45,085 bases of DNA, filler included, from Jimgerdemannia flammicorona (GCA_003990765.1; 2 parts of 2 records of this genome joined end to end with filler, not necessarily neighbours in it); one strand, 5' to 3'. Counted from the whole stretch's first letter, positions 1,325-37,195 are shown. The notes: generated by a model not told the origin, from the sequence alone. Program-made: numbers and translations.

Positions 1325-2118
1325 ACCAAAACAGATATACTCCAGATATAGCTGAAGGCACCAAAAACTGTGAAAAAGTGGAGAAGACACCAATCAGACA
1401 CCAATAAAGGAGCAACTCATCACTATTGCCTTCTCTCTACTACCCTGCAATAGGTACAGCAAACCAACCCAAGGTAGAGGGGATAATAATTGTGGAAAGT
1501 GAACTCAGAAGGTCACTTACCAAACTATTATAACCAGTAAGGTAGCAGAGAAAGAGATATTGATGATATTATCTCTGATGAAGTAGTTATCTAGGAAGAG
1601 ATATTCATGGATTAATTCTCTCTGTTTACTGAGATAATAATATATTGGGACTTCATTACCATTCTATAGAATAGCATCATCTGTCTCATATACTAGATAA
1701 GGTATTGGTGGGTGAAGGAGGGGTATATTATCTTTGCTTTCATCAGATTTACTATCTGCATACCTTCTATAGGTAACAGTACTATGAGTTGCAGAGTTGT
1801 AATATGCTGGCAGTTATGTTTTATATTGCTCATACTCTGGTGGTAGAGTTGTTAGTTCAATCTTGAGGGTTGTCTGGAGATACAGATTATATTCTCTGGT
1901 CTCTTCATTATAGTTGAAGTAATCAGGAGTAAATATAGGTTGGTACTCATGTCAGTGATCATTATCTCAATAGGTCTCATAGATGGTTATGAACTGTTGT
2001 AAGTTCATCAGTAAGATTGGCAGAATAATCAGAGTTGTCAGAGATTCTTAGCTTAAGATCATATCAGCATCAGAGGGATTGTTATCTTCTACTTTATTAT
2101 CATCAAACCAGATTATAT

Positions 2119-4606
2119 TGTAAGAGGGTTACTTGTTAGAGTAACTATTATATAGTTCCAGAAGAGTTTTCTAGAAGTTCTGGATATTCTGAAAGACTGT
2201 TTTCTTAAGATTAAGATCAATTTTATATGGAGTATATCCTCTATGCTTATTGATTTCAAGATCAGATTGATGTCTCAACCAAAGTCCTTTTTCGGACTAG
2301 TTCTGGATATTCAGGATTTTCTATATTTCAGAAAGTTCAAAAAACTAAGACCAGCTTAGTTGAATTGGCATATTGCTGCAGACAATACCCAATTAGGAAA
2401 TTTCGTAATAGAGTTAGGAGTGGGACCTAATGGAGAGCAGATTTACTTAAGAGTATTGTGTGGGTTATTAAATAGGTTTTATTTACTATTTATGATATTG
2501 CTATACTAAGAGTAGTTGTATGAAGAGATATTGTAAGGAAGTACTCAGAAGTTGTATTCAGATTGTTTAAGTATTTAAGTCTGAGATTTTGAGGTGTAAG
2601 AGAGGGGGTATTTATACTAGTGAGGGGCTATCTGGACTATACTGAATATGGATATAGTACTTAGTACCTTACTGAGTCGAAATATAGTCACATAGTATAA
2701 GTGTGATCTAATATTTCAAGAGATCATCTAGCTACTGTGTCAGTTCACAGTCATGTTGTACAAGGCTAATCTAACTATACTATGACTGCTAAGCTATCTA
2801 TAGATTTAGACACTGTCTAGGTAGTCTTTGATGACATCACTATTGATGATATTATCTCTGATAAAGTAGTTATCTAGGAAGAGTTATTCATAGATTAATT
2901 CTCTCTATTCACTGAGATAGTAATATATTGGGACTTCATTACCATCTTACAGGATAACATCATCTGTCTCATATGCTGGGTATGGAGTTGATGGATGAAG
3001 GAGTGGTACATTGTCTTTACTTTCATCAGATTCACTGTCTGTATATCTTCTATAGATTACTACACTATAAGTTGCAGAGTTGTAGTTAGTGCTCTCAACG
3101 AATTGAATTGAATTGAATTTGGCCCAAACTTGATTCAATTTGATTGAATCAAGGGTCCAATTTGATTTGATTTGAATTGAATCAAAGGTCTAATTCGATT
3201 CAAAGTTCAATTCAAACCTTAATTTTCAAAATGTAATAACTTGATGAAAACTCATCCAAATTTAATGTATTTTAGCTTGTTAGATTTACCGTATTAATGT
3301 GATTCTAACAAGCTAAAGTACGTTAGATTTAGATGGGTTTACGCTGAGTTATTGCATTTTGAAAATTAGGGTTCAAATCAGACCCTCAATTCAATTTGAC
3401 TTTTGATTTGATTCACATTGATTCAAATTGAAAAATCCCCAATTCGATTCAACTCGTTTAACCCTCAATTCGATTCGATTCAAATTGATTTGACTCATTT
3501 GGGAGCACTAGTTGTAGTATGCTAGCAGTTGTGGTTCATGTTGCTTGTACTCAGGTAGTGAAGTGGTTGGTTTGATCTCAAGAGTTGTCTGAAGGTACAG
3601 ATTGTATTCTCCAGTCTCTTCATTATAGTTGAAGTAATCAGAGGCAAATGTGAGTTGGTATTCATACCAGTGGTCATTGTCCCAATAGGTCTCATAGGTA
3701 GTTATAACTGTTATAAGTTCATTAGTAGTATTGGTAAAGTGATCAGAGTTGGCAGGGATCCTTGGCTTGAGGTCATATCAGTATCAGAGGGATTATTGTC
3801 TTCTGTTTTATCATTATTAAATCAAATGATATCATAGACATCCTTCATAGTATATTCTACTTAGGGCATTTGTAGGATGTGGTCATCAGGGTGTAGGAAG
3901 GTTCTGTCTGTAATCTGAACATACTCAATATACTTATAGTTGAGTTCTTGTATTATGTCATTGATTTGGCCATAAGACAGAGTAGCAATCATTTTGGCAG
4001 TAGTAACTTAGAGTCAGAAAATATAGGTACTATACTCATAGAAGAGTTCTTGATGTTTGTAGGCAATGAGTTTCTGATGTTGAGGTATCTGGGTAATATC
4101 TGTATTATAGTAGTATTCAACTATGTCTTCTAGGAGATGGCTGATCTAATAGTAGCTTGAGATTTGTCTGATTCAGTAAGCCTTACTAAGTATGTTTAGG
4201 GCATTCTATTGGACTTCTATAAAGTAGAGGAGTACTAGGCTATAGATATTTATGAGGAGTAGAGGAGGAGTGGCTCAGTTGATAATGGTATTCCAAATAT
4301 CAGTATGGATGCAGTTGTAGATCTTGGTGGTTATGTTTGTATATGTTTAGAAGTTGTGGTTGTTTTTTTGGTTTGTTTTGATTCTCTGTTTTGATGTATT
4401 TCAGTACTCAGTATATATATATTTGGTCCTAATTAGTAAGATTCTGTTTGTATAAATATTGTATTCCATGACTTTGTATTGACTCAGCTTCATGATCTTT
4501 TATTCCATGACTTCGTATTGACTCAGCTTTGTGATCATGCAGGTGATTTCCAGATTTGTTCAGAGATTATATGTGATTTTAGTGGCTTAGAGGTTATGTG
4601 CTTATA
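2119..4606 (-). mobile_element. Complete solo LTR of the same chromovirus family inserted into the 3' LTR (contains MITE copy 2)
   Basis: Starts TGTAAG at 2119 and ends GCTTATA (eroded CTTACA) at 4606. About 2056 bp after removing the MITE, colinear with 17840-19921. Flanks gattatat | tatcatagatatcc rejoin to the uninterrupted LTR sequence seen at ~19115-19135. Confidence 0.88.
3087..3510 (-). mobile_element. hAT-type MITE, copy 2 (424 bp, opposite orientation to copy 1)
   Basis: Termini TAGTGCTCTCAA ... TTTGGGAGCACTA. Perfect 8-bp TSD GTTGTAGT at 3079-3086 and 3511-3518. The empty site is visible in the other LTR copies (~1797 and ~18800). Confidence 0.92.
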
Positions 4607-5409
4607 TATCATAGATATCCTTCATGGTATATCCAACTTAGAGCATTTGTAGGATATGGTCATCAGGGTGTAGGAAGGTTCTGTCTGTAGTTTGAATATA
4701 CTCAATATATTTATAGTTGAGTTCTTATATTATATCATCAATTTGGTTATAGGATAGAGTGATAACCATATTAGAAGTAGTAACTCAGAGACAGAAAATA
4801 ACAGTGCTATACTTATAGAAGAGTTCTCAGTGTTTGTGGGTAATAAGCTTCTGGTGTTGAGACATCTGGGTAATATCTGTGTTATGGTAGTGTTTGACTA
4901 TATCTTCTAGGAGATAGCTAATCTGATAGTAGCTTGAGATTTGTCCAATTTAGTGAGCTTTGCTAAGCATGTTCAGGGCATTCCATCAGGCTTCCATAAA
5001 GTAGAAGAGTACTAGGCTATAGATATTCATAAGGAGTAGAGGGGGTGTAGCTCAGTTGACAATAATATTCCAAATATTAGCACAGATGTAGTTATTGATC
5101 TCAGTGATCATGTTTATGTATATGTTCAGGAGTTGGGGTTGTTTGTTTGGTTTATTGTAGTTCTCTGTTTTGATACATCTCAGTACTTAGTATATATATA
5201 TTCAGTCTTGATTTGTAAAACTCTGTTTGTATAATTCTTATATTCCATGACTTTGAGTTAACTCAGTTTTATATACTGTAACTTTGGTTTGACTCAGCTT
5301 TGTGATCTTGCAGGTGATTTCCAGATTTGTTCAGAGGTCATGTATAATTTCAGTGGCTTATTCAGTAGGTGATATATGATTTCAGTGGCTTGGAGGTTGG
5401 ATGCTTACA

Positions 5410-5423
5410 ACTCTCCCCTTCTT
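5410..5423 (-). promoter_or_regulatory. Polypurine tract (PPT)
   Basis: Minus strand reads AAGAAGGGGAGAGT immediately before the TGTAAG start of the 3' LTR. Confidence 0.85.
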
Positions 5424-5844
5424 AGCTTTTGACATCCTTATTGGGACCTTCTAATTTTGATCTAGTGTTATTATATCATTTGGATGGTCAAAAGTCTGAT
5501 AAAGTTCATTTTCTCAGAAAGTGACATGCTCATAGTACAGTTGCCTAATATGTTGGATTTACTTATTAAAGAGTTATATATTCAATACTCTGTGCTGGAA
5601 GTAATTCTGACATTATTCACTACTGGAGAATTTCCTTTAAGGAATCTTCTTAAATGTCTATATCTTGTTTCCCACCAGTGGTATGGAGAAAATAGGCTAG
5701 CTTTCAGTTTTGCTATTTTTCTAAAGAGTTGGTATTTTATCTTAACTTGTTGAGTTTTTTTATTTTGTTCATGATAATTATAATTGTTTAGAAGAGTAAT
5801 ATATAGTATATACTAATAGGTGCAGAAGAGCTTGGGTTTCAGTT

Positions 5845-8800
5845 ATTCAAGGAATTATATTTCTGAACTAAGTTGGTGGTATTCTGGAGATTGGTCTTTG
5901 ATTCCTATATTGCATCATGGATTGAATAACCTTTCCATTTGACAAGGTACTCTGGATGGTTTTTGTGGCTACGTTTGTTGAGGATTTGTTCAACTTTGTA
6001 TTCTTCTTAGTCATTAATAATGATAGGTGCAAGTGATTCTGTAGTTCAGTTGAGAATAACTCATTGTTGTTTTTATTATATTGCTTAAGACATTGGACAT
6101 TGAAGACTGGATGAATCTTAATGGTATCTGATAGTACCAATTTATAGGAAGTAGATGAGACTTATGTAATAACTTTGAATGGTCCAATAAATTTGCTATT
6201 CAGCTTTGTAAATAGTCTGTATTTGAGGTTGTCAACTCAGTATCCTCAGATGTCCAGTAAAACTTTTTCTCCAATATCAAAAGTTTCTTCTTGACAATAT
6301 TGGTTAATATACTGTAACTGTTATTCTTGGGCTTGTAATAAATTCTTGATGGCAATCTGGCTTAAGTTTTATATTCAGAGTAGGAATTCTTCAATGGCTT
6401 TGACTATAGAGAGTTCATCAGTGATTTGGATAAGTATCCGAGAGGTGTTTGAGTTTTATCCTATATTGGCAAAGAATGGAGTAATTCCAAGAAAAGCTTG
6501 CTTACTATTATTGTAAGCAAACTTGACTGTAGTAAGGTGTTATGCTAATTATCTTATCTGTAGGAAATATAGTTCCTTAGCATTTATTCTAGAGTTCAGT
6601 TCATTCTTTTAGTTTAACTATCAGTTTTAGGGTAAAAGGCTATAGATAGTGTAAGTTTCATTCCCAGGTGAGTATAGAGGGCTTTCCAAAAATGGCTGGT
6701 GAATTTTGGGTCTCAATCACTAATAATGATCTTGGGAAGACCATGATAGTAGAAGATTTTATCAAACAAGAGTATAGCAATATCTGGTGCTATTGCAGTA
6801 GTAGTAGTTGGTATAAAGTAGGCTTGTTTGCTGAGATAGTCTATGAAAACAATAATTGTATCTTTCCCATTCTTGGTTTAGGGTAGTTGTATAATGAAGT
6901 CTATAGATATTTATTCCCAATTGGCAGATGGTACTAGGATTGAGTGGAGTAGATCAGGTTTTGCTAGTATTGAGGACTTGTTGCATTAGCAGGTATCACA
7001 GAAAGTGATATAGATCTTTAGCTAATCTGCCATATAGGGTCAATAGAAGTTTTAGGAAATAACTTCATAATATTTGTTAAATCCTAAATGTCTAGCTGTA
7101 GGGGCATCATGATATTTGAATAGGATAGTCCTTTGGAGGTCTCAGTTGTTTGGAATATACAATCTGTCCTTATAGTAAATAGTATTGTTCTTCGGTCAAT
7201 ATTGATGATACTGAGTATACTTGTCAGCATCATCACTACTCAGGATTTCTTGGAGTACTTGAGCTTCTTTATCATTAGTATATACTATGATAATTTGTTC
7301 CATAATAGAGTTTGTAACCAAGGTGAGAGTTGGATAACTTCTTTGATTAGTAGTCTGGAGATTGTATCAGCAACAACATTTTTCTTGCTAGAGTGATACT
7401 GGATTTCATAGTCAAAGTTGGTAAGGACTTTCATCCATCTGACTTGCTTTTGAGAAAGAGTAGCCTGAGTCTTAATGTTGACTAATGACTTGTAGTTAGT
7501 CAATATAGTAAAGTGTACTATTTTTAGATATAATTGATATTTAATCAAGGTATCTATGATGGAAAACATTTCTTTCTCATAGGTTACATAGTTGATTTCA
7601 GTATTATTGAACTTGTGGGAATAATAGGCCATAGGGTATTCTTCTTGTATGAGTACTGCTCTAAGAGCTAGATCAGAGACATCAATAGTAACTTCATAAG
7701 GTAGGGCAGGGTTTGCTGCTTGAAGTACTGGAGTGGTTATCAAGATATCTTTTAGTGCTTGAAAGGCTATATCTTATTCAGGTTACTAATTTATAAGATT
7801 GTTGAATTCTTTCTCTTGTTTCATAGTCTAGGGTTGTTCTTCTTTCTTACTATGCTTGGTTATTTGGGTAAGAGTAGTAGTGATCTTGGCAAAGTTGGCA
7901 ACAAATCACTTATAATAGTTTGCTAATCCCAGGAATAACTGGAGGTCTTTCAGCTTCTTGGGTCTGGGCCAATCCTTGATTGCAGAGATTTTGCTGGAGT
8001 CCACTTTGATTCTATTTAGTATGACAATGTGTCCAAGGAATTGAATTTTCTTCACATTTGCTGAGTTTTGCAAAGAGTTGGTTTTCTTGGAGTTTCAGTA
8101 GTATATACTAGTTTAAGGTGTTTGAGATATTCCTCCAGAGTTTTGCTGAAGACTAGGATGTTGTCAATATAGACAATAACAAATTTATCCAGATATGGGT
8201 ATAGGATGGTATTCATCAATATCTGAAAGGTTACAGAAGCATTAGTTAAGCCAAAGGGTATAACCAGAAATTTGAAATGTCTATAGCAGGTTTGGAAGGC
8301 TGTCTTGTAGATATGTATCTTCTTCTTTCATGGCAATTTGCCAATAGCTATTTCACAGGTCAAAAGAGCTCATGAACTGTGGGTTGGTAAGCCTATTGAA
8401 TATTTCATTGATTCTAAGTAATGAGCAACAGTTCTTAATAGTCTGTTCATTGAGGTCACAGTAATCAATGCATATTTATAGGTCTTCTCCTTTCTTGACA
8501 ACAAAGAGAACTGGTGCACTATAGGGTGATCACTGGGTCTGATGAATTCTTGTTCTAGAAGTTTATTAATTTTTTTTCTTGAGTACATCAATCTCTCTCA
8601 AAGATATATAATAGATTGATTTGAAGGCAGGCTTAGTATCTGGGATAGTCTTGATGGTATAGTCTACTGCTCATTTAGGAGATAGATCTTTCAGGAGTTT
8701 CTTCAGAAATATATCTCAGAATTTCTAGAGTAGGGGTCTGACATGGCTGTCAACTTTAAAAAAGTCTTCTTCAGAGTTCTCAGGTTCTTCTTTGGATAAG

Positions 8801-9390
8801 TGAATAAAGATGGCAAAGAGAGGACATTTCTTAGCCAATTTCTTGAGCTGTAGTTTGTTGATGTGAGTGATCTTTGGTCCAGGGTCACTAGAACTGAGTG
8901 GGTCTTTTTTGCCTTGCAGTTTGAAGTTATGGTATCCTTTCTTAATGGTTAGAGAATGGTTTACCCAATTGATCATAGAGTTCTCTTGTTTCAACCATAG
9001 GGTCTCAAGAATGATTTCATTGTCAGAAAGTGATACAATCTGGAGGGTAACATATACTCAGTAGTCATTAATTCAGAAGAGTAGGTTGCAGACTTTCTTG
9101 CTAATGACATATAAGGTTCCATTAGCTGTGGCAACTACTTGAATTTGTTGTACCAGAGATATGAAAACCTTGAGTCTGTTGGCTGTTTCTTTATTAATGA
9201 AGTTGCCTGAGGTACCACTGTCTATCATAATCTTGACAGGTGCTTGATTGACAAAAGCTTGAAGTATAAGCAGTTTGTCTGATCCAATGGTAGTGATTTT
9301 GGTAGTAAGAGCTTTCCTTCTATTGGTTCTTCTTTGAGCCAGTTCATTGACATAAGAGAAGTAATCATCAATTATTTGGAAAGAGTACAT
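5845..9390 (-). pseudogene. pol: pol relic: aspartic protease, RT, RNase H, integrase, chromodomain
   Basis: PR 9073-9390 (VKIMIDSGTSGNFI). RT ~8000-8600 (YIDNILVFS at ~8146-8172). RNase H 7285-7743 (IDVSDLALRAVL, EINYVTYEKE). IN ~6070-7120 (HPVFNV, FIGPFKV, SIDFIIQLP). Chromodomain ~5870-6007 (EEYKVEQILNKRSHKNHPEYLVKWKGYSIHDAI*E). Many stops and frameshifts. Confidence 0.93.
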
Positions 9391-9492
9391 TTCAATGCCA
9401 TAGAGATATCAGCTACTAGATATATATCTATCTTTGATTTTCTTGTAGAATTGTTCTTCTTTGCTTACAGTAGGTTGGGCTGGGGCCTTATT

Positions 9493-9903
9493 TGATGAGC
9501 CAAATTCTTTGGATCCTCAGATGGTGGGTAGTAGTTCAGAGACTTCCTTGACTGTAAAAGTTGACTCAATTTTTTTGAATAGAATCTGCATAATACAGAA
9601 ACCAATAGGGATCTTGAATGGTATCCAACTGTGATTTCAGATGAGGATAATAATTTTACTTGTGTAATCTTTATCAATGACTTCTCTTTCTACTGAGAGT
9701 CCTTTTAATGCTAGGCTACTGTAACAGCATATTTTTCCAATATGTCCTTCTGGTATTTGGATGCTGATTCCAGTATAGACTTGTTTGACTTCTCAGTTGG
9801 AAACTGTAACTTCTTTAGCTACATATAGGTCATATCCAGCTGCTTTTTGACTTCCTTTGGTTGGGGCCTTAGCAGTTTATCTTAACTTAATAAAGTCTAT
9901 TGT
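9493..9903 (-). pseudogene. dut: dUTPase domain (trimeric type) in frame between Gag nucleocapsid and protease
   Basis: Single frame: TIDFIKLR*TAKAPTKGSQKAAGYDLYVAKEVTVSN*EVKQVYTGISIQIPEGHIGKICCYSSLALKGLSVEREVIDKDYTSKIIILI*NHSWIPFKIPIGFCIMQILFKKIESTFTVKEVSELLPTI*GSKEFGSS. All five dUTPase motifs are present (AGYDL; [R]SSLA; [G]VIDxDY; [R]I[A]Q; [R]GxK[G]FGSS). The bracketed deviations are C>T/G>A changes. Confidence 0.93.
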
Positions 9904-10644
9904 CTTGGTGGTCAGATTGTTGAGGTGGTATAGAGTAGTAACAGTTGCTTGTATTACTGTTCAGGGTTTTTGATTAGGGCAGACACTGGCCATGTGTTCT
10001 GTCTTTTGGCAATAGAAGTATGCTCTACTTCTTTGAAGTTTATTTCTTTTTCCTTCCATGAGTTTCTTGAAGATACTTGGCTGAGTAGGTTCAGGATTTT
10101 GGAGTATCCAAGAGATAGATATGGAGGAAGCTCAGAGTACTTTATGCTTAGGTTCTTCTTTTTTGGTCTAAGTTTTTTTCTTATTGTTAAATTGTCTTTG
10201 AGGCAGGATTGGTCCAGCTGTCAGAATTCGCTTAACCATAGTCTTGATTCTTATCAGGTACCATTATTGGTGATCACAACCAACTAGGCAGCCTTGTTCT
10301 TGGATTTTTCTAGTAAACCATTCAGGCAGTATATTGAATAAATGGTCTGCTCTTATACCATTTCATGCTTCATCATTGGCAATATATCCTAGGCCAATAG
10401 TGTTCAGTAGTGACTCAAGTTTTATACAGAAGGTTTCAAATTCCTCTTTGCTATATATATCAAATTTGAGGTTATGGCATTTAACTCGAGATTCAGCAAT
10501 CATAGTTTCACTATAGTATTGAGCAATCATAAGTTGTTTGAGTCCAGGGGCTGCAGAATGGTGAGGTTCCTCTAGTAACATTCAGGTTATACAATCTTTT
10601 AGCAACACTTTCAATATAGTTTCTGGAGATAAGCTACTAGAATC

Positions 10645-12699
10645 ATGGCAACCAACAAGTGTCCTGAGGTGTGTACTGGGCAGAGTGGCCCTGGAGTGTT
10701 TGAATGGTAGCAAGTGGGGAGAGGCCCTGGCTTGCAGGGAAGCATGAGGGGCCTGCTGGTGGGAGGATGCAGTAGAGGAGGGGGTGGGGCTGGAGGTCAA
10801 GGGTCTGCTGGTGGCAATGGGGGAAGATCTGGACTCCCGAGCTTCCCGGACAAGGTTAAGGAGAGTGGGTGGCTGGCAGGTACTAGGACTGGAGCTGCTG
10901 AGGGGAAGGGTAAGATGAGCCTTAGAAGGGGGGGTGGTGCTCCAGCTGGGAGTGCAGGAGTAGGGGCTGGAGGCACTGTGGCTGGAGGTGTGACTGTTGA
11001 TAGGAATGTGACAGGGAATCAGGAAAAAAAAAGAGATGTGACAGCTGATGGCCAGGTGGGGCAGGGATTCCTGATGTGGAAGGGGGACCTGGCAGATAGT
11101 GTAACAGGGCTAGTAGTGACCCCATTGCTCAAGAAGTCGATCTCAGAGTTCGTGGTGACCTTGTGCTTCAGGGGCTTGGTAGTAACAGTGAGGATGGTTC
11201 TGGGGCTTATTTCAAAGCAGGTGGCTGGGGCGGTCTTGGTGAAGTTCCTAAAGGGTCTGGAGGGGGTTGAGGTGGGCTTTGAGGAGGCAGGCCTACTGGA
11301 TGAGGCGCTGAAGACTGGTGTCATGGTTGGGGAGATGGTGGTCCCTATAGTGTGGTACCTGCAATGAGATCCCAGGGTAGTACAGCTTCTGGTGAAGGGG
11401 GTGCTCATGGTGACTAAGGAGGAGACTAGGAAGAGGGTGGAGGAAGTGATGGTTGAGTATGGTGATGTGGTGGACATTGGCTTTCAGGTGTGGGAGGGGA
11501 TGATGATCAGGATGGGTAATGTTGATGTCAGGATTCAGCTGGTGGGCAAGGAGACCATGGGGAAGGCGAGTGACTGGCTTTCTGTGCTGATGTGGGGGGC
11601 ATTCATCTGTAAGGTTTCAAGGGTGAAGGGGAGTGAGGAGGAGGAGGAGGATTTGTTGGAGGCACTGGAGGAGATGAGTGGAGCTGTGGAGAGGAGAGCA
11701 AGGGCCTGGAAGATGTATGAGGAGTTGATGCATCTAGAGGTTGTGGATGAGAAACATATCTGTACTGACAGAAAGCTGTGGGAGTAGGCACAGGGGTGCA
11801 GGAGACAGAGAGAGCTTCTAGCAAGTATAGTGGTGAAGGCAAAGCAGAGGGCAGTGGGAACTGAAGGGTCTGGGGGTGTCAAGGCCAGTGTTTGGGTGAG
11901 CAAAGGGGGTGGGGAGGTGGAGGTAGATAAGAAAGGGGCTGAAAAGGTGCTGAGCAAGGACCCCTTTGCTGATGGCACTTTTGAGGTTTGGGAGCTAGAG
12001 CTGGATACAACCTCCCCTCTTATCAGGAGGGGCCCGGCTGAAAGGAGGCAGACATCTGAGGATACGCTGATGAAGGGGGCCCAGCAGGTGCACTTTGGGA
12101 TCCCTGATGTGGAACAAGGGGGTCAGGTGGTGGCAGTTGGTGAGGATGAGCTGGTGGATGTCCCTGAGGAGGAGTGGGATGAGGCTGCCAGTGTAGGGAC
12201 TGACACCACAATGTTGGATGTTGGACAGCCAGGGACTCTGGGAGGGAAGGAGGTGGGGAACTTGCTGTAGATGAGCAAGATGATAGATAATCTTGTAGCT
12301 GAGTCTTTGGGAGAGGTGGATCTGTGGGTAATGCCTGAGGAGCATTGGGCACAGATTCTGCATGGTGAGGGAGTGGTGGAGGCACTGAAGGGGGAGATTC
12401 TTTTGATTTTCCTGGAGGAGGAGGGATATGAGGTTGATGAGGTGAGGAGGGCTGAACTGGTAGTGGTCGCTGGGGAGTGGGCAGCATACTGTTGGGTGGA
12501 GCAGCATGGTTTGCAGTTCTAGCAGGAGGCTTGTTGGGAATATTGTGAGAACTTTGAGGAGCAAGAAGATGGGGCAATGGTAGAACTTCTGGGAGGCTTG
12601 GAGGCACAGAAAGCTGGTGAGAGGGAACTAGCTACAGATCATGACTTGGATTTGTTGCAGGAGGAGCAGGATGCAGCATTGTAGAGGGTGGATTCATGA
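10645..12699 (+). pseudogene. LINE ORF1 relic (684 codons, one frame, several premature stops)
   Basis: ATG at 10645. ORF-track pieces 10714, 11392, 11830 and 12271 share this frame. RRM-like segment (LLVKGV...YGDVVDIGF...GNVDVRI). TGA at 12697-12699. Confidence 0.75.
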
Positions 12700-15600
12700 T
12701 ACAACATTTTTCTCTTATGAACAGTACAACCAATGTTTTCTCTTTGAATGTGAATGGGCTAAGGGGATCTGGGTGGTATAAAAACATTTTTAACTGGCTT
12801 AAGGGATTGGAGGCAAATCTCTTTTTATTGCAAGATGTTTAGTGTGAGAATGAGGATGATCAGGTTGAGTGGACTAGGAAATGGGGTGGGGCTGCTACTT
12901 GGTTTGGAAAAGTGCCAATTCTGGTGAGGAAGGGTAGAGGTGACTTGGGGGGTATTGGGAGCTGGGGTGATCACTTGGTCTGGGGAGATTGGCATCGGCC
13001 AGGGTAGGAGTCAGTGAGGGTTAGCTCTTGCTACTGCCCTGCAGTTAGGGGTGAGAGGATTGCATGGATTAAGGAGCTGCTGGAGGAAGGTATTCTCTTG
13101 GAGGAAGAGATTGATGTGCTTGGGGGGGACTTTAATATGGTTCGGGATCAGCATCTAGACCAAACTGATGATGGGCAGGGTACAGGAGGGAGGAGTAGAG
13201 ACCTGGATGTATGGGAGGAGGTGGAGAGGCTGAGCTCCTTAGGAGATATGGGCAGAATATGATGGGGCAACTCAAGGGTCTACACACATTGGGTGAATGA
13301 CTTAGGTACAAGGATTGACTGGATTCTGGCAGCAGATTGTTGGGGGTCTGATATCTGGAAGGCTTTGGAGATAGATTGGTGCTCATGATCTGATCACTGG
13401 GGACTGTTGGGACAGGGGTAGTTTGGGGGGAGTGGAGATGGACCTAGACATTGGCACCTTAACTCCTCTCTGCTAGCTGAGAAGGAGTTGTGGGACTCAT
13501 GGGTAGAGGACATTCAGGCGAAAATTTTCTGCTGGAGGTGTGAGGGTTTGTCAGTGGGTATCTGTTGGATGAGATTGAAAGAGGCTGTGAGGGTCTATTG
13601 GGGAGGGGCTGAGAGAGAAGAGGGGAGGCGAAGGAGGAAGCACATGAGGTGTGCTTCCAATAGGCTGAAGAGATTGCATATAAATTGGGCAGGTCTGCTT
13701 GCTGCTGATGAGGTAGAGGACTGGAGGTTGGCATGAGTTAGATTGGAGATAATGGAACTACAACAGGTGTTGAGAGAAGAGGAAGAGGTGCATATGTGAG
13801 GTATGGCTGCAAGGCTATGGTGGCAGGGGCTCAAGGAGGGTGAGTGGCCTACTAGATTTTTGTCCCATCTGCTCAAAACTAGGAGGGTGAGGTATCGGTG
13901 GGATGGAGTCCTATGTGCCAATGGGGATATGGTATATAGCACACAATGAATCTTAGGGGTTTTGAAAGAGAGATGGTAGGGTTTGTGGAGTGAGGAAGAA
14001 GGGGATACTGATGGGGTGGCTATTGAAGATACATTAGGAGAATGGAGGCTGCCGCAAGTGGCTGGACTGGATGACTTGGCCTTGCCAGTGTGAGGTGAGG
14101 AGGTCCAGAATGTCCTTGCAGCAACTAGACCCGGAATAGCACCAGGGGAGAACAGACTACCATGGGACTTTTAGAAGAAGATGGTTATGGTCCCTGGTGT
14201 TTTGGGTGAGATAACTGCTCTCTGTGATCATGTTCTTCAGAGTGGTGAGTGGGTTGGAGAGCAGGACCTCAGGCTGGTGGCTTTATTGTATAAAGATAAG
14301 AGAAGGAGAGAAGACTGGAAGAACTGGCAGCTGATCATGCTTTTGGACATGGATAGGAAGATGGTGACTAAGGTGGTTGTTGCAAGGCTGCAGAAAGTTG
14401 CTCAACAGATGCTGGGGGAGGAGCAGTGGGGCTTTGTTGGGGGTAGACTTATAAGAGATGGGACTGCTTGGGTGCATGGTGTCATTGAAGGGGCCCGAGC
14501 TTGTGGCTTGGATGGAAGGTTGGTTTTCTTGGACCAGGAGAAGGCCTACAACTGGGTCCGGCAGGTTTGGCTGAGTAAGGTGTTGGATCATATTGGTATT
14601 CCCCCAGGATTTCGGGCTTCTATGTTGAGTCTGCTAGAGGGTAGTTGGGTGGTACTGATGTGCAATGGTTACTGTGGTCTGGCATTTACCTTGGAAAGAG
14701 GGGTTCCTCAGGGGGACCCCCTGTCCCCTATTCTGTATGCCCTCTCTTTGGAACCTTTGATGGATAGAATTTGCCAGAAAGTGGTAGGGCTCTCTATCTA
14801 TGATATAGTGTGGAAGGTGGGAGCATTTGCAGATGATATGATGGTTGGCCTTGGGTCTGTGGCAGATGTTGAAGTAATTAAGGTGGTAGTGGATTAATAT
14901 GAGAATTACTCTGGGGCGAAGCTCAACTGGCATAAGTGTGAGACTATGGTGTTGGGAAATGGGCTGGTGGGTGGAGATATCATTGGAACAATTGTCCCTA
15001 CTGGTGAGGTGGTATGGTATCTGGGCATCTTCCTCTCTATGTATGGCTCTGTCCTGCTATGAGTGTGGTGGGAGAGCAGGGTGGCTACTTGGGGGGAGGC
15101 CCTTTGAGGTTGGGGAGGCCACCATATCTCTCTAGCAGGGTGGGTAGCAATTCTGAATGTGTACTGGTTCCCCAAGCTATGGTATGTGGCCTACCACCTT
15201 GACTTCTCAGCTTGGATGGTGAAGAGGCTGATGAAGGTGGCTAGGGATTGGATTTGGGCAGGGCAGAGGTTCCATATACTCTTGTAATATCAGTAGTTAG
15301 GGGAGATCTTGGCCTTATAGATTTCCCTAAGAGATTGCACTGCTTGTGAGTCTGGTGGTTGAAGAGAGCAGCTGAACTGCAAGGAGGGGGTTAGGTGCCT
15401 CTGTTGCAGAAGGTGTGGGAGATGCGAGCCTCCCCTCGAGGGTCCTCAGGAGACCTACTCTCTTTGGTAGGGCTCAAAGGAATTCAGAGGCTGAGATTTA
15501 AGGGCTTTTGGTGGGGAGTGGTTGATGGAGCATACAGAATTTGTCTGCACTAGCAGGGCAATGAGGGGGAGATATTGTGGGGACCTAGTATATAGTGATG

Positions 15601-16216
15601 GGATAGATTGCTACTGAAAGGTGCTCCACTTGCTGCTTTTGATATTGGGGATGGAGTGGAGTATCAGCAGGGTCTTGGCCAGGATCTTTGGCCAAGTGGC
15701 TAGCAGGCAGTCAGGATTGGCAAGGAGTGGGACTGGGTGGGTATCTGGTCTTAGAGTGCTAAGGTATGGTGGTGGCTTCCCCCCAAGTTCTGGGTGGTGT
15801 GGTGGCAAATACTGCGGTGGAATATCATGCTGAATTTCTGCACCAGGCATCTGGTGGATGGTGGCTGTTTCAATTGTGAGGAGTGTTACAATGTAGGGCA
15901 AGCTGGGGGTTTGGTGCAGATACTGGAATATTGGCTGGGAGATTGTGAGATTTTGGGGGACTTTTGGGTTGCAATAGGAGATAGGCTGGGTGTGGGGCGC
16001 AGACTGGTGGGTGAGGGGGATTGCTGGGAGGGCTTGAGGTCTTGGCTAGTGGGGGGAGTGGGGGATAGTTGGCTTACTATTGGGTGGGTGTTAGCAATTT
16101 GGGTGGGTTTAGCAGAACATTGGTTATTTGTGTTTGAGGAGGGGTGGCAGGTGAGCCTGCAGGAGAAGGTCTTAAGGTGGGAGGAGCTGCTGGGAGATCT
16201 GATGACTGGATGGTGA
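12696..16216 (+). pseudogene. LINE ORF2 relic: APE endonuclease, reverse transcriptase, C-terminal Cys domain
   Basis: APE motifs SLNVNGLRG, GGDFN, RIDWIL, SDH. RT motifs QWGFVGGR, DQEKAYN, GVPQGDPLSP, AFADD. C-terminal CFNCEEC. Contains stops and frameshifts. Confidence 0.93.
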
Positions 16217-16428
16217 ATAGGTTGGGGTCCTTCAGGGGGGTGATGGTGAGGTTTGGTGATAAAGATATGTGATCAGAGTGGTGGGAGGGTAGGAATTGTA
16301 TTCGATAGAGTGGTATTTCATTGAGAAGGGGTAGGGGGGAGGGGCCCCCCTAGGGGGATAGGGTAGGGGGTGGGTTCACTGTACTTATATGGGATAGATG
16401 GGTATAATAAAGGAAGAGTCTGAGTGAC

Positions 16429-16464
<36 letters not shown>

Positions 16465-17824
16465 GCTACAGGATGGGCTCTATATCCTGGGGCATTGTTT
16501 GCTACATTCTGGGCAATAACTGTAGATTGAGTATCCCATATAAGGGGCTTCTTAGGAAGGATTTGCCACCATTCTTTAGCAGGTCCTCAGAAGAATATAA
16601 TAACTTGATGGATATAGACCATAGTAGTAGCAAAGAGTTGTTCCAGAGTATGGTCTTGATTATTTGTTAGAAAGCAGTCAGCAACTTGCTCATTGGTCCA
16701 TTGATTGGCTTTAAAGTTGATATCAACTATACTAATGAAGCTTTGGACTTCTTATGTAGTACCATTAAAGATAGATAGGCTCAGATTTTTAGTTGGTCAG
16801 GTCTGTTCGGCTAAGGCAGTAAAGGTTGCTGCCATTATGGCTACCTGAGTTATAAGGTCTAGAATCTGTTGATTTGCCATGTTGTTTACTGGAGACAGTT
16901 GGACTACTGGTAGTTGGGTTACTGATATGACTTGAGGTACTGGTATAGAGTATGATGGTATTCTTTAGGTCTATGTAAGTTACTGGAGTAATAGTTGTAG
17001 GTCTGGAGTAAGGGCTTGATAGATAGCTGTCTATTGCTGTATAGGTATGTTCTGTCCTGATAGAGGTGCATCTCCTTCAGTAGTATATCCAGGATTGAAT
17101 TCACTGAGATACTCCTTCTTCTCTTTAGCTTGGTCCTTATGTAGTTGGGTTTGCTCAGCATCGAAGTAGACAGAATCAGTTGTATATCTGATTTCAGATA
17201 GGCTTAATTCAAAATCAAGTTCCAGTTCAGTATTGGTTTCAGATTTAGATAAGATTATAGCTGAGCCTGCTTCTGGTTTGGGGCCAGGTTGTTGATAGAG
17301 AGTTACTCTTACTTCTTCTTTAAGAATATGGTAGACCTTGCAATTCTGGAAGCAGTAGTATAAGGTGGTCTTGGTTCTTGTATAGTGAAAGTCAGTAGAG
17401 TTGAGCTACTTGGCTATAGAGGCTTAGACTTTATGAGAAACTAAGGCTAGAAAGACTGCTGCTGGTTATCCTAGGTTGCTCAGATTTGTAGAGCTGACAA
17501 AACTCTTATTGAGAAGAGTAAAGAAGACTTCTATAAGACCTTCTTTATCTTGACTTGCTGGGTGTAGAGCAAGGAGTTTGGTATATAGGGTTTTATCTAT
17601 TTACTGATTTAATTAGAGTACTCTTTCTTTAAATGAAGTTTGTCCCACTTGTTGTAGGTGTGGAGGTCAAATTGTCCTTATGTTAGGTTTAATTCTCTCT
17701 GGATTGTCAGATGGTTTAGGATAAATTCCAGTTCAGAGATTGGGCTTTATACCAACTTATAGGAATTCTCAGAGAAGTTTGTAGTAGAGTGAGAAAGTAT
17801 CTTGAAGTAGAATTGAATTGTAAA

Positions 17825-17836
17825 CCACTGCTACTA
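17825..17836 (-). promoter_or_regulatory. Eroded primer-binding site (tRNA-iMet-like)
   Basis: Minus strand reads TAGTAGCAGTGG 3 nt after the 5' LTR. This is one G>A change from TGGTAGCAG, complementary to a ...CTGCTACCA initiator-tRNA 3' end. The tRNA identity is inferred. Confidence 0.55.
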
Positions 17837-17839
17837 AGT

Positions 17840-19921
17840 TGTAAAAGAGTTACTTATTAGAGTAACCATTACATAGTTCTAGAAGAGTTTTCTGGAAGTT
17901 CTGGATATTCTGAAAGACTGTTTTCTTTAGGTCAAGATCAATTTTATATAGAGTATATCCTCTATGCTTATTGATTTCAAGATTGAATTGATATCTCAAC
18001 CAAAGTCCTTTTTTGGACTAGTTCTGGATATTTAGGATTTTTCATATTTCAGAAAGTTTAAGAAACTAAGACCAGCTTAGTTGAATTGGCATATTGCTAC
18101 AGACAATACCCAATTAGGAAATTTTGTAATAGGGTTAGGAGTGAGATCTAATAGAGAGCAGATTTACTTAAGAGTGGTTTGTGGGTTATTAAATAGGTTT
18201 ATTTGCTATTTATGATATTACTATACTAGAAGTAGTTGTATGAAGGGATATTGTGAGAAAGTGCTCAGGAGTTGTATTTGGATTGTTCAAGTCTTCAAGT
18301 CTGAAATTCTGAGGTCTGGGAGAGGGGGTATTTATACTAGTGAGGGGCTATCTGGACTAGACTGAATATGGATGTAGCACTTAGTATCTTGTTGAGTTGA
18401 AATGCAGTCATATAGTACAAGTGTGATCTGACATATCAAGAGATTATCTGACTGCTGAGTCAGTTTACAATCATATCATATAAGACTAATCTAACTATAC
18501 TAATGACTGCTAAGCTATTTATAGATTTAGATGCTGTCTGGATAGTCTTTGATAATATCACTATCAATGATATTATTTCTGATGAAGTAGTCATCTAAGA
18601 AGAGTTATTCATGGATTAATTCTCTCTGTTCACTGAGATAATAATACATCAGAACTTCATTACCATTCCACAGAATAGTATCATCTGTCTCATATGCTGG
18701 GTAAGGTGTTAGTAGATGAAGAAGGAGTGCATTATCTTTGCTTTCATTAGATTCACTGTCTGCATACCTTCTATAGATAATAGCACTATAAGTTACAGAA
18801 TTGTAGTATACTGACAATTGTACTTCATATTGCTTATACTCTAGTGGTGGGATTGTTGGTTTGATCTTGAGGGTTGTCTGGAGATACAGGTTATATTCTT
18901 CAGTCTCTTCATCATAGTTGAAGTAATTAGGGGTAAATATAGTTTGGTACTTATACTAGTGGTCATTATCTCAATAGGTCTTATAGGTAGTTATGAACTA
19001 TTATAAGTTCATCAGTAAAGTTGGTAGGGTAATCAGAGTTGGTAGAGATTCTTAGCTTAAGGTTATATCAGCATCAGAGGGATCATTATTCTCTGCTTCA
19101 TCATTATCAAACTAGATTATATTATAGATATCCTTCATAATATATCTAACTTGGGACATTTGTAGAATATGGTCATCAGGGTGTGAGAAGGTTCTGTCTG
19201 TAGTTTGAATATACTCAATGTACTTATGGTTGAGTTCTTGTATCATATCATTGATTTGGCCATAGAATAGAGTGGCAATCATATCAGTGGTAGTAACTCA
19301 GAGACATAAATAACAGTACTATACTTATAAAAGAGTTCTTAGAATTTGCAGGCAATGAGTTTCTGGTATTGAGACATCTGGATAATGTCTGTATCATAGT
19401 AGTGTTCAACTATGTCTTCTAAGAGATAGCCAATCTGATAGTAGCTTGAGATTTATTCAATTTAGTGAGCTTTGCTAAGTATGTTTAGAGTATTTCATTG
19501 GGCTTCTACAAAGTAAAGAGGTGCTAGACTATGGATATTCATGAGAAACAGAGAGGGTGTAGCTCAGTTGACAATGGCATTCTAAATGTCAGCATAAATG
19601 TAATTATAGATCTCAGTGGTTATATTTATATATATATTCAGAAGTTGAAGTTGTTTGTTTAGTTTATTGTAGTTCTTTGTTTTGACACATCTCAGTGCTT
19701 AGTATATATATATTTGGTCTTGATTAATAAGACTCCATTTGTATAATTCTTATATTCTGTGACTTCAAGTTGACTCAGCTTTGTGTACTGTGACTTCAGT
19801 TTGACTCAGCTTCATGATCTTACAGATAATTTCCAGATTTGTTCAGAGGTTATGTATGATTTCAGTGGCTTGTTTGGCAGGTGACATGTGATTTCAGTGG
19901 CTTGGAGGTTGTGTGCTTATA
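17840..19921 (-). repeat. Uninterrupted 5' LTR (2082 bp)
   Basis: Ends TGTAA...CTTATA. Minus-strand TATAAATA at 18329-18336 (also 2609-2616 in the solo LTR) and AATAAA at 18198-18203 imply a U3 of ~1.6 kb. Confidence 0.92.
18527..19623 (-). pseudogene. LTR(U3)-encoded ~365-aa ORF of unknown function (other copies at 2806-4334, and 1558-2118 plus 4607-5111)
   Basis: One long frame in the three LTR copies. ATG retained at 5109-5111. Stops in one copy are mostly CAA/TGG in another. Terminal TAA shared at 18527 and 2806. Preceded by a TA-run at 19703-19713. Confidence 0.8.
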
Positions 19922-22493: not shown

Positions 22494-22593
22494 NNNNNNN
22501 NNNNNNNNNNNNNNNNNNNNNNNNNNNNNNNNNNNNNTTAATTAATTAANNNNNNNNNNNNNNNNNNNNNNNNNNNNNNNNNNNNNNNNNNNN
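22494..22593. other. Artificial contig linker
   Basis: Exactly 100 nt of N with TTAATTAATTAA (stops in all six frames) at 22538-22549. Confidence 0.95.
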
Positions 22594-27940: not shown

Positions 27941-29062
27941 ATGTTTTTCTGTGGTGGGGGTATGTTGATTATGTTAATTTTCGCAGTGGGAAATATGAAT
28001 GGAAAAGTAGCGTCATTAAAATATTTATACATTATATCTACAATGCCAAATACACAAAGGAACATTTCGTGACACCGCCAGACAAACAAAGGGAGCAAAT
28101 GGACACAGAAGATTACGCCGAATGGATCGGCCATCCAGGGTAACCCAGCCCAATCCTACCCATGACAGTGGCCCGATCCGTTACAACCGGGTTGACGGGT
28201 TGATTGACATAATTATGTTCTTGGTTCTTCAAAGAAAATGCGGCAAAATAGAACTGTAGATCAACTCTTTGTCACCGTTACTTGAAAGTCTCCCAGTTTC
28301 TCAATTAATTATGAATACTGAGCGTTTTAGGAAAATTGAGCATTCCTGGAATGTCAGACTGTCGGTATTGACCGTGTTCCGGAAGGCGGCAACATACTTA
28401 TTATTACAAGAATGTAAAAGGACTAGTGCTCCTAACAAAATGAATATCAGCCCATCCTCCTCCGCATCGCGGACTTCCCCATGTTCTTCAAGCATGTCAA
28501 CGGAAGGAAAGAGCACTCCCTTGCACATATATAACAGCTCCTCAACAAGTCCAATTTCACAACTCAAAAAATTTTCGCACACCCCTTCCCTTTCGCGAAT
28601 TCGAATTGCAGTCCTGGAATTGTGCTGGTTTGTACGAAGAGACACCTTGCGCCTATGTTGCGAAATATTAGCTTGGCACCCGGCCCCAGACTAGTTTGGC
28701 GAGGAGTTTTCCATTTCTGCACTTTTGGTTGTTAACCCTGGTCGACCCTCGACCCGTTAGGAGCCCTATTACGTGCACATTGGCCATCAAAGATCATTAG
28801 CCAAAGTTCCTGATTGGTTTTTACTGTACATTACATGGATCACGTCTGTGAGGATTAATACCCAACGAACCGAAGCAAATACTAGTTTAGGCGCAATAAT
28901 TGAGGCAACCATTATAAACAGTTTTACGGGCGATATTAAGTGGGGGTAAAATATTATAACCGCGATAATTATATAATTATATAAAATTGTTGACATCACG
29001 TTTCCTAAGCCACCTCCATCACCGTCCTCTTGACCAACAAAGCAACGTCCGACCATCACGCC

Positions 29063-29665
29063 ATGCCAGAAACCCCCGAGGAAAAGACCCGCCGCTTCCA
29101 GATCGAGCTCGAGTTTGTACAGTGCCTTGCGAATCCGTGGTACCTCCACCGTGTGTGTTCCTCAATTATCCTCTCCTCGCTGACTGATGATAGGACTGGT
29201 TCTGACACCATCGTCTTCATTCCACCAAACAGACCTGGCACAACAGGAGTATCTGAAGGATCCGGCTTTTATCAACTACCTCGATTATCTACAGTACTGG
29301 AAACGGCCCGAATACGCCAAGTTCATCATGTGCGTCACAAACCTGCCCGTGTATCATATGTTGCTCGAATACCTCTTATTCAACCCCCTTTACCTATGGT
29401 CTCACTAACTTTCTTCACATTTTCTTAAAGATACCCTCACGCCCTCCACTTTCTTGACCTCCTTCAACACCCCGCCTTCCGCGACAAGCTGATCCTAAAG
29501 AAAGAAACGGAAGCCATCCACCAGACACAATATTACCATTGGGCGTACTACCGGAACCCGCCGCGCACGCAAGGGGCACCGGAGGTGGGCGCACAGCAGC
29601 AGCAGCAGCAGCAAGAGCTGGCGAACGGGGGACCGGCAGCTGACGGCGCGGCGCAGAGAGCGTGA
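29063..29665 (+). CDS. MED31: Mediator subunit 31 (SOH1)
   Basis: Exons 29063-29150 (RFQIELEFVQCLANPWYL), 29233-29329 (LAQQEYLKDPAFINYLDYLQYWKRPEYAKFI) and 29431-29665 (YPHALHFLDLLQ, poly-Q tail), with GT-AG introns in phase. Confidence 0.97.
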
Positions 29666-36245: not shown

Positions 36246-37195
36246 CGAGCTCGTTCATGGCAACTTCCAATCCCCCATTGAAGACCGCCTAGAGGAAGGA
36301 ATCCGGGTTCTGGACGGTACTATCTCATGGGTTTTCTTCGATAGGTTGCATTCACGTACACTAAATTCAATCTTATGCTAAATTTTAGCTGGCTGCGGCT
36401 CGGGCGTTTGGTGCCGTGAGATGGCTGAGGAATTCCCCGAGTCAACTTTTGTGGGCGTCGATCTGGCCACCTTTTTTAACGCGGTTGACCCCGACGATGT
36501 CCCCATTAACTGCTCCTTCCAGCAGGCAAGCATACTCCACCTGCCTTTCGAGGACGAGACCTTCGATTTCGTCATACAGCGGTTCCTCGGCATGGCCTAC
36601 TCACCTTCGGACTGGGAAACCGCTCTGAAGGAGCTCATCAGGGTGCTAAAGCCCGGCGGGTGGATTGAGCTGGCCGAGGGCAATTTCATCATGCAACGGC
36701 CGCCGGCGTGTTATCAGAGGTTCTACAATTCGCGTAAGATTTTTCTTTCTTTCCGGAATGGGGATGTTCATTAGATTGCTCGATTCAAATTACCTATCTC
36801 TCAAATTACCACAATCCAATCCACTAGAAATATATTGACTTCCCCCACCTCTCGCCATTTTGTACTTCCCAGTCGCAGCAGTCTGTCTCTCTCGCGGTGT
36901 GGACATTAGCCTCCTTCACGCCGTCCCGATGCGGCTTGCAGAGACAGGCGTCATCGAGGACATCACTATCGACTACCTAAGCATACCAACCGGATGGCAC
37001 GGCCGGATAGGTGATATCTGCCTCGCCAGTTTTGGAGCCGCCATGCGCGCCCTACGCCCTGCTATCGCGCCCACTATGGGTCTCGACAATGAGGGGTACG
37101 AGGCCATGTGCCAGGAGGTCCTCAACGGGTTCCGGGAGAAGAAGACTTGGTTTAAGGCACCCTATGGGTTTGGGATGAAGAGGGTGGAGGGGTAA
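35824..37195 (+). CDS. Class I SAM-dependent methyltransferase (LaeA-like family), 5 exons
   Basis: Exons 35824-35921, 36041-36100 (ILPSDETEINRLDYQH), 36246-36316 (GNFQSP...RVLD), 36389-36733 (AGCGSG...LPFEDETFDFV...RVLKPGGWIEL) and 36873-37195, all GT-AG and in phase. Confidence 0.92.

Follow-up and report, generated by a model that had tools for sequence, protein, structure and literature searches.

A dead chromovirus of Jimgerdemannia flammicorona with a dUTPase ahead of its protease and a probable gene inside its long terminal repeats

We analysed a 45,085-nucleotide stretch of DNA from Jimgerdemannia flammicorona (GCA_003990765.1; two parts joined end to end with filler), called the window below, which carries a Ty3/Gypsy retrotransposon and its nested insertions at positions ~1559–19921. 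The best explanation of this region as a whole, and one that we consider probable, is a dead chromovirus whose polyprotein has the order nucleocapsid, dUTPase, protease (NC-dUTPase-PR) and whose 2,082-bp long terminal repeats (LTRs) each hold a complete sense-strand gene of ~250 codons. The copy in the window is a dead and hypermutated one of a filamentous-fungus chromovirus, and the LTR gene is read in it through the damage, with the help of further LTR copies and of one intact homologous protein.

A coding frame within the long terminal repeat

The 5′ LTR (17840..19921, minus strand) was delimited by self-blastn, by reading its ends directly and by aligning the LTR copies. Its length of 2,082 bp bears out the 2.08-kb LTRs proposed in an earlier reading of this DNA by a model given nothing else (the sequence-only reading). 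The LTR termini form the inverted repeat TGTAAG/CTTACA; in the 5′ copy, which starts TATAAG and ends CTTACA, the leading TG has mutated to TA. The 3′ LTR starts at 5409, adjoining a purine tract; at about LTR position 808 it is broken by an insertion, a complete solo LTR of its own family, and it resumes at 2122. Its first part (4605..5409, minus strand) covers LTR positions 1 to ~808 and its second part (1559..2122, minus strand) positions ~803–1362, both delimited by self-blastn and the first also by alignment; the far end is truncated, the outer LTR being cut off at 1559–1563. The solo LTR (2123..4604, minus strand) has the same termini as the other copies and is flanked by a duplication of 3–5 bp whose extent is ambiguous (ATA or ATATA). 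Identical termini together with a short flanking duplication indicate that the 2.08-kb unit moves as an LTR and that two separate insertion events are recorded here.

The LTR copies are 79.5–87% identical by self-blastn, and their variable columns are dominated by transitions (383 transition-only vs 49 other). By context, the C/T columns number 32 of 35 for CpG, 109 of 199 for CpA, 64 of 154 for CpC and 28 of 169 for CpT. This hypermutation, which resembles repeat-induced point mutation (RIP) and which we call RIP-like, is the reason that no long open reading frame (ORF) survives: the longest stop-free stretch in the raw 5′ LTR is 116 codons (18605–18955).

Inside the LTR, on the sense strand of the element, lies a frame of 250 codons plus stop at LTR positions 640–1395 (18527..19282, minus strand), running from a Met at 19282 down to 18530 and ending in a stop at 18527–18529. 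The 3′ LTR retains codons 1–55 of it in its first part and 53–236 in its second, and the solo LTR contains a third copy. Over this span of the 5′ LTR the gene frame has seven stops in 251 codons, compared with 16 in 250 and 43 in 250 for the other two frames; outside the span the gene frame itself has 34 stops in 443 codons. Six of the seven are TAA, TAG or TGA where another LTR copy has CAA, CAG or TGG. The seventh (X231) is TAA in two copies and TAT (Tyr) in the third, and every one of the seven is thus a sense codon (Q, W or Tyr) in some other LTR copy. Restoration of C and G from the three LTR copies cleared six of the seven stops inside the span and 8 of the 34 outside it in the same frame (26 left), and the restored frame is open for 230 codons, or for 250 once the seventh stop is counted as sense. 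The sequence-only reading had put an ORF of ~365 codons in U3 of the LTR and proposed a C/G-restored consensus as a check on it. A frame does open on restoration, at the lengths just given, but there is none of ~365 codons, the raw copy offering at most the 116 open codons or the 250-codon frame with its seven stops. Extension to ~365 codons was tried and rejected, as the restored copies all keep stops both upstream (codons 198, 200 and 207) and downstream (464, 468, 473 and 476).

An intact homologue was found when P0007, the in-frame translation of the LTR gene, was used as query against a set of 5.8 billion proteins. One match was obtained among 131 candidates, a protein of 247 amino acids (P0009; E = 4.1e-84, 58% identity over 98% of the query). 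P0009 and the LTR gene share their first Met and their last residue and differ by two indels of two codons each. At the positions of the stops in the window, P0009 has Q, Q, Q, W and W at five and Pro at X231, and X82 falls inside an indel. Identity amounts to 146 of 247 residues; 50 of the 101 mismatches vanish when only C>T and G>A changes are undone (7.8% for shuffled P0009), which puts the identity before mutation at no more than 79%. In the reverse direction, tblastn of P0009 against the window matched the three LTR copies and nothing else, and as a control the off-by-one frame of the same stretch gave no match in 1.84 billion representatives.

The differences among the LTR copies themselves also have the pattern of a coding sequence. 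Third positions of codons account for 11 of the 14 non-transition differences inside the gene, and second positions for none (binomial P = 6.9e-4); outside it the corresponding counts for the three positions are 10/6/11 and 1/4/3. A solo LTR that inserted independently carries the gene too, and the homologue comes from an unrelated record. We conclude from these sequence comparisons, taken together, that a real gene of ~250 codons resides in the LTR and that it has evolved under purifying selection as a protein. It lies wholly inside the LTR unit (positions 640–1395 of 2,082) and travels with the LTR.

The polyprotein and its dUTPase

The element is a Ty3/Gypsy (Metaviridae) chromovirus encoding gag, a zinc knuckle, dUTPase, protease, reverse transcriptase (RT), RNase H, integrase and a chromodomain. 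All of these domains were found on the minus strand when Pfam was searched with stops translated as X, and the order protease, RT, RNase H, integrase runs along that strand from 9282 to 6078. The sequence-only reading had recognised a Ty3/Gypsy element with a chromodomain integrase, which Pfam bears out over ~1559–19921, and had placed a dUTPase after the zinc knuckle and ahead of the protease, where it is indeed found and in the same frame as both.

Downstream of the 5′ LTR lie the leader and the N-terminal part of gag (16462..17839, minus strand; candidate Met at 16880), assigned from translation, with gag recognised by position and reading only; the N-terminal piece of gag matches no Pfam family in any of its three frames. 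The C-terminal part of gag (9976..10644, minus strand; Pfam and translation) includes a CCHC zinc knuckle at 9976–10017, whose first Cys is now Tyr. It is followed on the minus strand by the trimeric-type dUTPase domain (9493..9873; PF00692, E = 4.3e-24), which has three stops inside its Pfam span, and by an aspartic protease with the motif IDSGTSG (8935..9282; PF08284 RVP_2, E = 2e-8). The RT (8103..8490, minus strand; PF00078, RVT_1, E = 7.3e-11) is spread over two frames through an indel and has YIDNIL in place of the expected YxDD. RNase H (7414..7779, minus strand) matches PF17917 (RT_RNaseH; E = 1.2e-20) and PF17919 (E = 4.4e-20), and the Atlas matches of its stop-free stretch are generic RT_RNaseH clusters only. 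The integrase (6078..7144, minus strand) consists of an H2C2 domain at 6974–7144 (PF17921, E = 3.4e-10), a core at 6635–6913 (PF00665, rve; E = 7.8e-5 at 23.3 bits, under the curated cut-off of 32.6) and a Tf2-1-type SH3 domain at 6078–6212 (PF24626, E = 1.3e-12). The chromodomain (5854..6000, minus strand; PF00385, E = 7.7e-11) sits C-terminal of the integrase, beyond SH3_Tf2-1. From the chromodomain (5854) to the 3′ LTR (5409) there are only 445 bp, which contain no ORF and no Pfam match, hence no env. The polypurine tract, AAAAGCTAAGAAGGGGAGAG (5411..5430, minus strand), was read directly and ends one base ahead of the 3′ LTR.

Zinc knuckle, dUTPase and protease share one reading frame. The later frame changes fall inside domains, which identifies them as decay and not as programmed shifts. 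An in-frame TGA occurs at 9961–9963 (minus strand), five codons past the zinc knuckle in the dUTPase frame; as seen in this one copy, it could be an ancestral terminator of gag that readthrough bypassed to give the pol part, or could derive by mutation from TGG or CGA.

The dUTPase match extends over profile positions 3–128 of 129. The best solved chains are those of cellular or generic dUTPases, with 3p48_A first (E = 3.7e-20), aligned over chain residues 12–145 of 147 and including the C-terminal glycine-rich motif. Next to it stand 1f7d_A, labelled as a pol polyprotein (E = 7.3e-11), and 1dut_A, 1duc_A and 2d4l_A (6.9e-11, 6.5e-8 and 3.6e-5), which we take to be retroviral dUTPases. This ranking of scores, which is not a phylogeny, suggests a dUTPase of cellular type and hence a captured cellular gene. 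A second copy of this part of the element is present in a metagenome contig of 1,345 bp (L001), which is identical to the window element at 1,034 of 1,337 aligned bases (77%) from the dUTPase via the protease into the start of the RT, and which matches residues 84–400 of P0008 at E = 9e-125. L001 is also degenerate, and it begins too late to cover the TGA at 9961–9963. Because L001 carries dUTPase and protease together, the dUTPase is no private capture of the window copy. The sequence-only reading had named copy-specific capture as the outcome that would count against it; this is not what we find for either extra, the dUTPase recurring in L001 and the LTR gene in the solo LTR and P0009. Limiting uracil in cDNA is the accepted role of retroviral dUTPases. 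In the chromovirus an enzyme taken from a cellular gene would likewise lower dUTP around the reverse transcriptase, leaving less uracil in its cDNA.

The nest of insertions and its surroundings

Positions 1–20 kb of the window form an AT-rich stretch (GC 0.33–0.37 vs 0.38–0.54 over most of the flank), within which a block of ~50% GC at 10–17 kb corresponds to a long interspersed nuclear element (LINE) on the plus strand. The interval ~1559–19921 is a nest made up of the Gypsy element, the LINE in its gag, the solo LTR in its 3′ LTR and a miniature inverted-repeat transposable element (MITE) in the solo LTR. The sequence-only reading had drawn a single element over 1558..19921. Its ends stand, since the 5′ LTR begins exactly at 19921 and the truncated 3′ LTR ends at 1558, and in place of one clean element there is this minus-strand nest. 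The last 720 bp of the 3′ LTR are gone, and with them the border at which a target-site duplication of the element itself would be read.

The 5.8-kb LINE (10645..16461, plus strand) is an intruder with an endonuclease and an RT, recognised from Pfam (RVT_1, E = 6.9e-21; Exo_endo_phos, E = 1.1e-6), from a 30-nt poly(A) at 16432–16461 that forms its 3′ end and from the jump in GC; its 5′ border is approximate. It splits gag into the N-terminal piece at 16462–16880 and a remainder from ~10644 downward. No target-site duplication was found for it in the form of a common word of at least 7 bases at the two borders. The sense strand of the LINE is skewed (G 38.3%, C 13.5%) and reads many Trp; Arg is usual where it shows Trp in the endonuclease and RT motifs. 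The Gypsy region is also poor in C on the plus strand of the window (C 14%, G 21%), and the flank at 23–45 kb is balanced. The base composition suggests a strand-asymmetric C>T process that would have acted on the whole nest after insertion, irrespective of the orientation of the elements.

The MITE, also an intruder, is hAT-like, 424 bp long and located at 3087..3510 (no strand assigned), at about codon 159 of the gene copy in the solo LTR, where it is bounded by the target-site duplication GTTGTAGT. A second copy lies at 947–1324 in inverted orientation and is ~92% alike. The terminal inverted repeats of both begin TAGTGCTC, and each copy has its own 8-bp target duplication (GTTGTAGT and ACCAAAAC). 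The insert folds as a long hairpin (−176.6 kcal/mol). The ~230 bp at 1325–1558, from this second MITE copy to the truncated end of the 3′ LTR, have no match elsewhere in the first 22 kb.

Beyond the nest, runs of 44 N each occur at 22494–22537 and 22550–22593, just past the repeats. The flank holds host genes on the plus strand, a Med31/SOH1 fragment at 29009–29428 (E = 1.7e-7) and a class I methyltransferase domain (Methyltransf_25) at 36382–36774 (E = 1.7e-18); their split ORFs suggest introns, which fits a eukaryotic and probably fungal host. No tRNA gene was found in the window, hence none against which a tRNA-type primer-binding site could be compared.

Placement, function and relation to known elements

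The translated LTR gene is strongly acidic (46 Asp + Glu vs 10 Lys + Arg; isoelectric point 4.05), contains 23 Tyr, 24 Pro and no Cys, and has a grand average of hydropathy of −0.81. It has no membrane segment, the peak 19-residue hydropathy being 0.97. The product has the appearance of an acidic protein, disordered over most of its length, in which short aromatic motifs are conserved. A protein of this kind would work through the other proteins that it binds and not by catalysis; it might regulate the element, serve it as an adaptor or counteract control by the host. Any single one of these binding roles is, taken by itself, unlikely.

As to where in the LTR the gene would lie relative to the transcript, we lean slightly towards U3. 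In that position it would form part of the 3′ end of the genomic RNA, each round of reverse transcription would place it at both ends, and every solo LTR would retain it. It may be expressed from a subgenomic RNA or from a transcript internal to the LTR. A TATAAATA box is found just downstream of the stop of the LTR gene. Furthermore, 12 nt at 17816–17827, 13 nt past the 5′ LTR, are complementary (9 Watson-Crick and 3 G-U pairs) to LTR positions 1450–1461 (18461–18472), a site 55 nt past the gene stop and ~40 nt past the TATAAATA box. The match may, weakly, mark a Tf1-like self-priming site and a transcription start at ~1450, or it may be due to chance (p ~0.1–0.3 by our own estimate).

Several observations weigh against the interpretation as a whole. 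This 12-nt complementarity is the one hint at the transcription start and is possibly fortuitous. The family of the LTR protein is documented from two lineages only: a profile built from both sequences recovered only P0009 among 1,362 candidates of the 5.8-billion set (longer and shorter lengths were outside the search), and none of 351 pattern matches in JGI metagenome contigs and none of 106 in IMG/VR was confirmed as a relative. P0009 comes from a contig of 998 bp and may or may not sit in an LTR. With E up to 1 admitted, the LTR protein matches neither a Pfam family nor a solved chain, and the six frames of the LTR likewise gave no Pfam family. AlphaFold2, run on the single sequence with no alignment, gave no confident fold (mean predicted local distance difference test score, pLDDT, 35.9), and the Atlas model (pLDDT 0.39) has no usable neighbour, with structural template-modelling scores of at most 0.30. 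In view of this want of a family, chain or fold, the function proposed above is a guess from composition. The dead copy in the window gives no sign of present activity. The mutational signature, too, agrees with the classical RIP of Pezizomycotina in one index and not in the other. Classical thresholds are TpA/ApT >0.89 and (CpA+TpG)/(ApC+GpT) <1.03; the former index, at 0.96–0.99, satisfies its threshold, and the latter, at 1.2–1.3, misses it, which is why we prefer the term RIP-like hypermutation.

The most radical rival explanation is that there is no gene, the frame being a chance result of C/G restoration and the 2-kb repeats not being true LTRs. Since undoing transitions can in principle remove any stop, restoration inflates open frames, and the raw copy has nothing open beyond 116 codons. 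However, the intact P0009 of 247 amino acids matches at E = 4e-84 without restoration, the effect of restoration is concentrated in the span (six of seven stops, against 8 of 34 outside), the codon-position periodicity is confined to that span, and the off-frame control is empty. The repeats moreover have TGTAAG/CTTACA ends, an adjoining polypurine tract and a solo copy with a flanking duplication. The absence of a gene, already contradicted by the LTR structure, P0009 and the codon-position data, is in our estimate very improbable. A milder proposal accepts the ORF and makes it a passenger, a foreign or host coding piece captured in an ancestral LTR with no role for the element. Its want of a recognisable family or fold and its documentation in just two lineages would suit a passenger, and accessory ORFs of LTR retrotransposons are often lineage-specific according to the consulted parts of PMC5408684 and PMC3485330. 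Across lineages with differences at 21–41% of residues, however, a neutral passenger would not keep both its start and its stop and confine its indels to whole codons, nor would it give 11 of 14 non-transition changes at third positions, and no cellular donor homologue was found in the 5.8-billion protein set. We regard a passenger as improbable, if less so than the absence of a gene.

A more serious alternative keeps the gene and moves it into R-U5. The transcription start would then fall within the LTR's first 600 bp, and the ORF would be a first cistron or leader ORF ahead of gag, comparable to ORF0 in certain plant elements. TATA-like runs (TATATATA) at LTR positions 210–219 and 286–295, upstream of the ORF and conserved in the three copies, would suit such a start, and Retrosat2-type plant elements do have an extra ORF0 upstream of gag-pol together with LTRs of >3 kb, as far as the consulted text of PMC3485330 describes them. 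Against this, the frame between the putative early start and the ORF retains stops after C/G restoration, and the TATAAATA box and the 12-nt complement past the ORF stop fit, weakly, a start at ~1450. An R-U5 of >1.4 kb would moreover be required, which far exceeds that of any LTR retrotransposon known to us. We judge R-U5 placement unlikely, though to be taken more seriously than a passenger, and retain our slight preference for a gene in U3.

The arrangement invites comparison with mouse mammary tumour virus (MMTV), a betaretrovirus with the order NC-dUTPase-PR and with the gene sag in U3, whose product is a membrane glycoprotein. The window element shares with MMTV the order of zinc-knuckle protein, dUTPase and protease and, like it, has a complete sense ORF inside a long LTR, hence at both ends of the provirus. 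It differs in having no env, no visible gag-pro frameshift and an integrase with a chromodomain, and its LTR protein is, in contrast to Sag, acidic and soluble-looking, with no membrane anchor and no Pfam family. Nor is there homology, the window dUTPase scoring far better against the cellular chain (3.7e-20) than against the chain labelled as a pol polyprotein and the retroviral chains (6.9e-11 to 3.6e-5). The sequence-only reading had likewise implied no homology to MMTV genes, in agreement with the ranking of dUTPase scores and with the LTR protein belonging to no Pfam family. The likeness to MMTV is best taken as an analogy of layout and placement only. In HIV nef and foamy-virus bet, accessory frames overlap U3 of the 3′ LTR and start upstream of it; these are also 3′-proximal frames overlapping U3, whereas the window gene lies entirely within the LTR.

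Among fungal elements, chromoviruses with a dUTPase have been described from Postia placenta, where the sections consulted of Novikova et al. (2010, PMC2864245) place it at the amino-terminus of Pol (PosPlaTy3-3), at its carboxyl-terminus (PosPlaTy3-4) or between protease and RT (PosPlaTy3-5). The same source cites earlier dUTPase-bearing elements from Phanerochaete chrysosporium (Novikova & Blinov 2008) and Tmt1 of Tuber melanosporum (Riccioni et al. 2008), and its authors hold that the domain was gained independently and from different sources. Fungal dUTPase-bearing elements are also treated as known in the excerpts available of Arkhipova and Yushenova 2019 (PMC6431247) and Rodriguez et al. 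2017 (PMC5408684). PosPlaTy3-3, as described there by Novikova et al., resembles the window element in having the dUTPase ahead of the protease in the polyprotein of a chromodomain Ty3/Gypsy element, and independent acquisition fits the cellular-type dUTPase of the latter; this likeness to the PosPlaTy3 and Tmt1 elements is one of description, not of sequence. The premise of the sequence-only reading that fungal Ty3/Gypsy elements are without dUTPase is therefore out of date in the light of PMC2864245. The text consulted of that paper mentions neither an LTR gene nor 2-kb LTRs, and its Figure 3 legend lists an 'add. ORF' of unknown function whose location is not stated. The plant Gypsy elements Retrosat2, RIRE3 and RIRE8 likewise combine long LTRs (>3 kb) with an additional orphan ORF that evolves fast and has no known function, according to the parts of PMC3485330 consulted; ORF0 of Retrosat2 lies between the 5′ LTR and gag-pol, whereas the window gene is inside the LTR. 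A review of additional ORFs in plant elements (PMC7264820) contains none of five phrases that would place an ORF in, within or inside an LTR. In our literature search, which did not extend to Repbase, Dfam or the supplement of PMC2864245, MMTV, with the superantigen encoded by its LTR (PMC2191198), was the only case of a protein-coding gene reported inside an LTR, and no LTR retrotransposon with an LTR-resident ORF was retrieved; other matches on coding LTRs concerned foamy-virus microRNAs, HIV and others.

Because the dUTPase half has already been described in kind, the candidate novelty is confined to the LTR gene. The sequence-only reading had proposed an undescribed 'complex' lineage with the MMTV layout; the layout stands, as NC-dUTPase-PR plus an LTR gene, but novelty does not come from the dUTPase, which is one more member of a known set. 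With its orphan gene, kept in the LTR under selection, the element seems to follow a variant of the chromovirus plan that has not been described. More tentatively, and with somewhat less than an even chance in our judgement, this fungal chromovirus lineage may be a true 'complex' retrotransposon, with a dUTPase and a selected accessory gene wholly in the LTR. The acidic, aromatic-rich product of that gene would then govern the element or weaken control by the host; it might, for instance, work in the manner of an activation domain, or imitate a nucleic acid and so target a protein of host repair or silencing. If so, each insertion would bring two copies of the gene and each solo LTR one potentially expressible copy, and genes borne on LTRs would have arisen a second time, independently and outside the retroviruses.

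LTRs of non-retroviral LTR retrotransposons are usually taken as non-coding. A gene wholly in the LTR is duplicated with each transposition, survives LTR-LTR recombination in solo LTRs and can be expressed without gag-pol. If the LTR gene is functional, it would offer a tractable fungal case for asking why retroelements gain accessory genes and how these are expressed. More generally, long fungal LTRs that are annotated as non-coding may hide genes, especially after RIP-like mutation.

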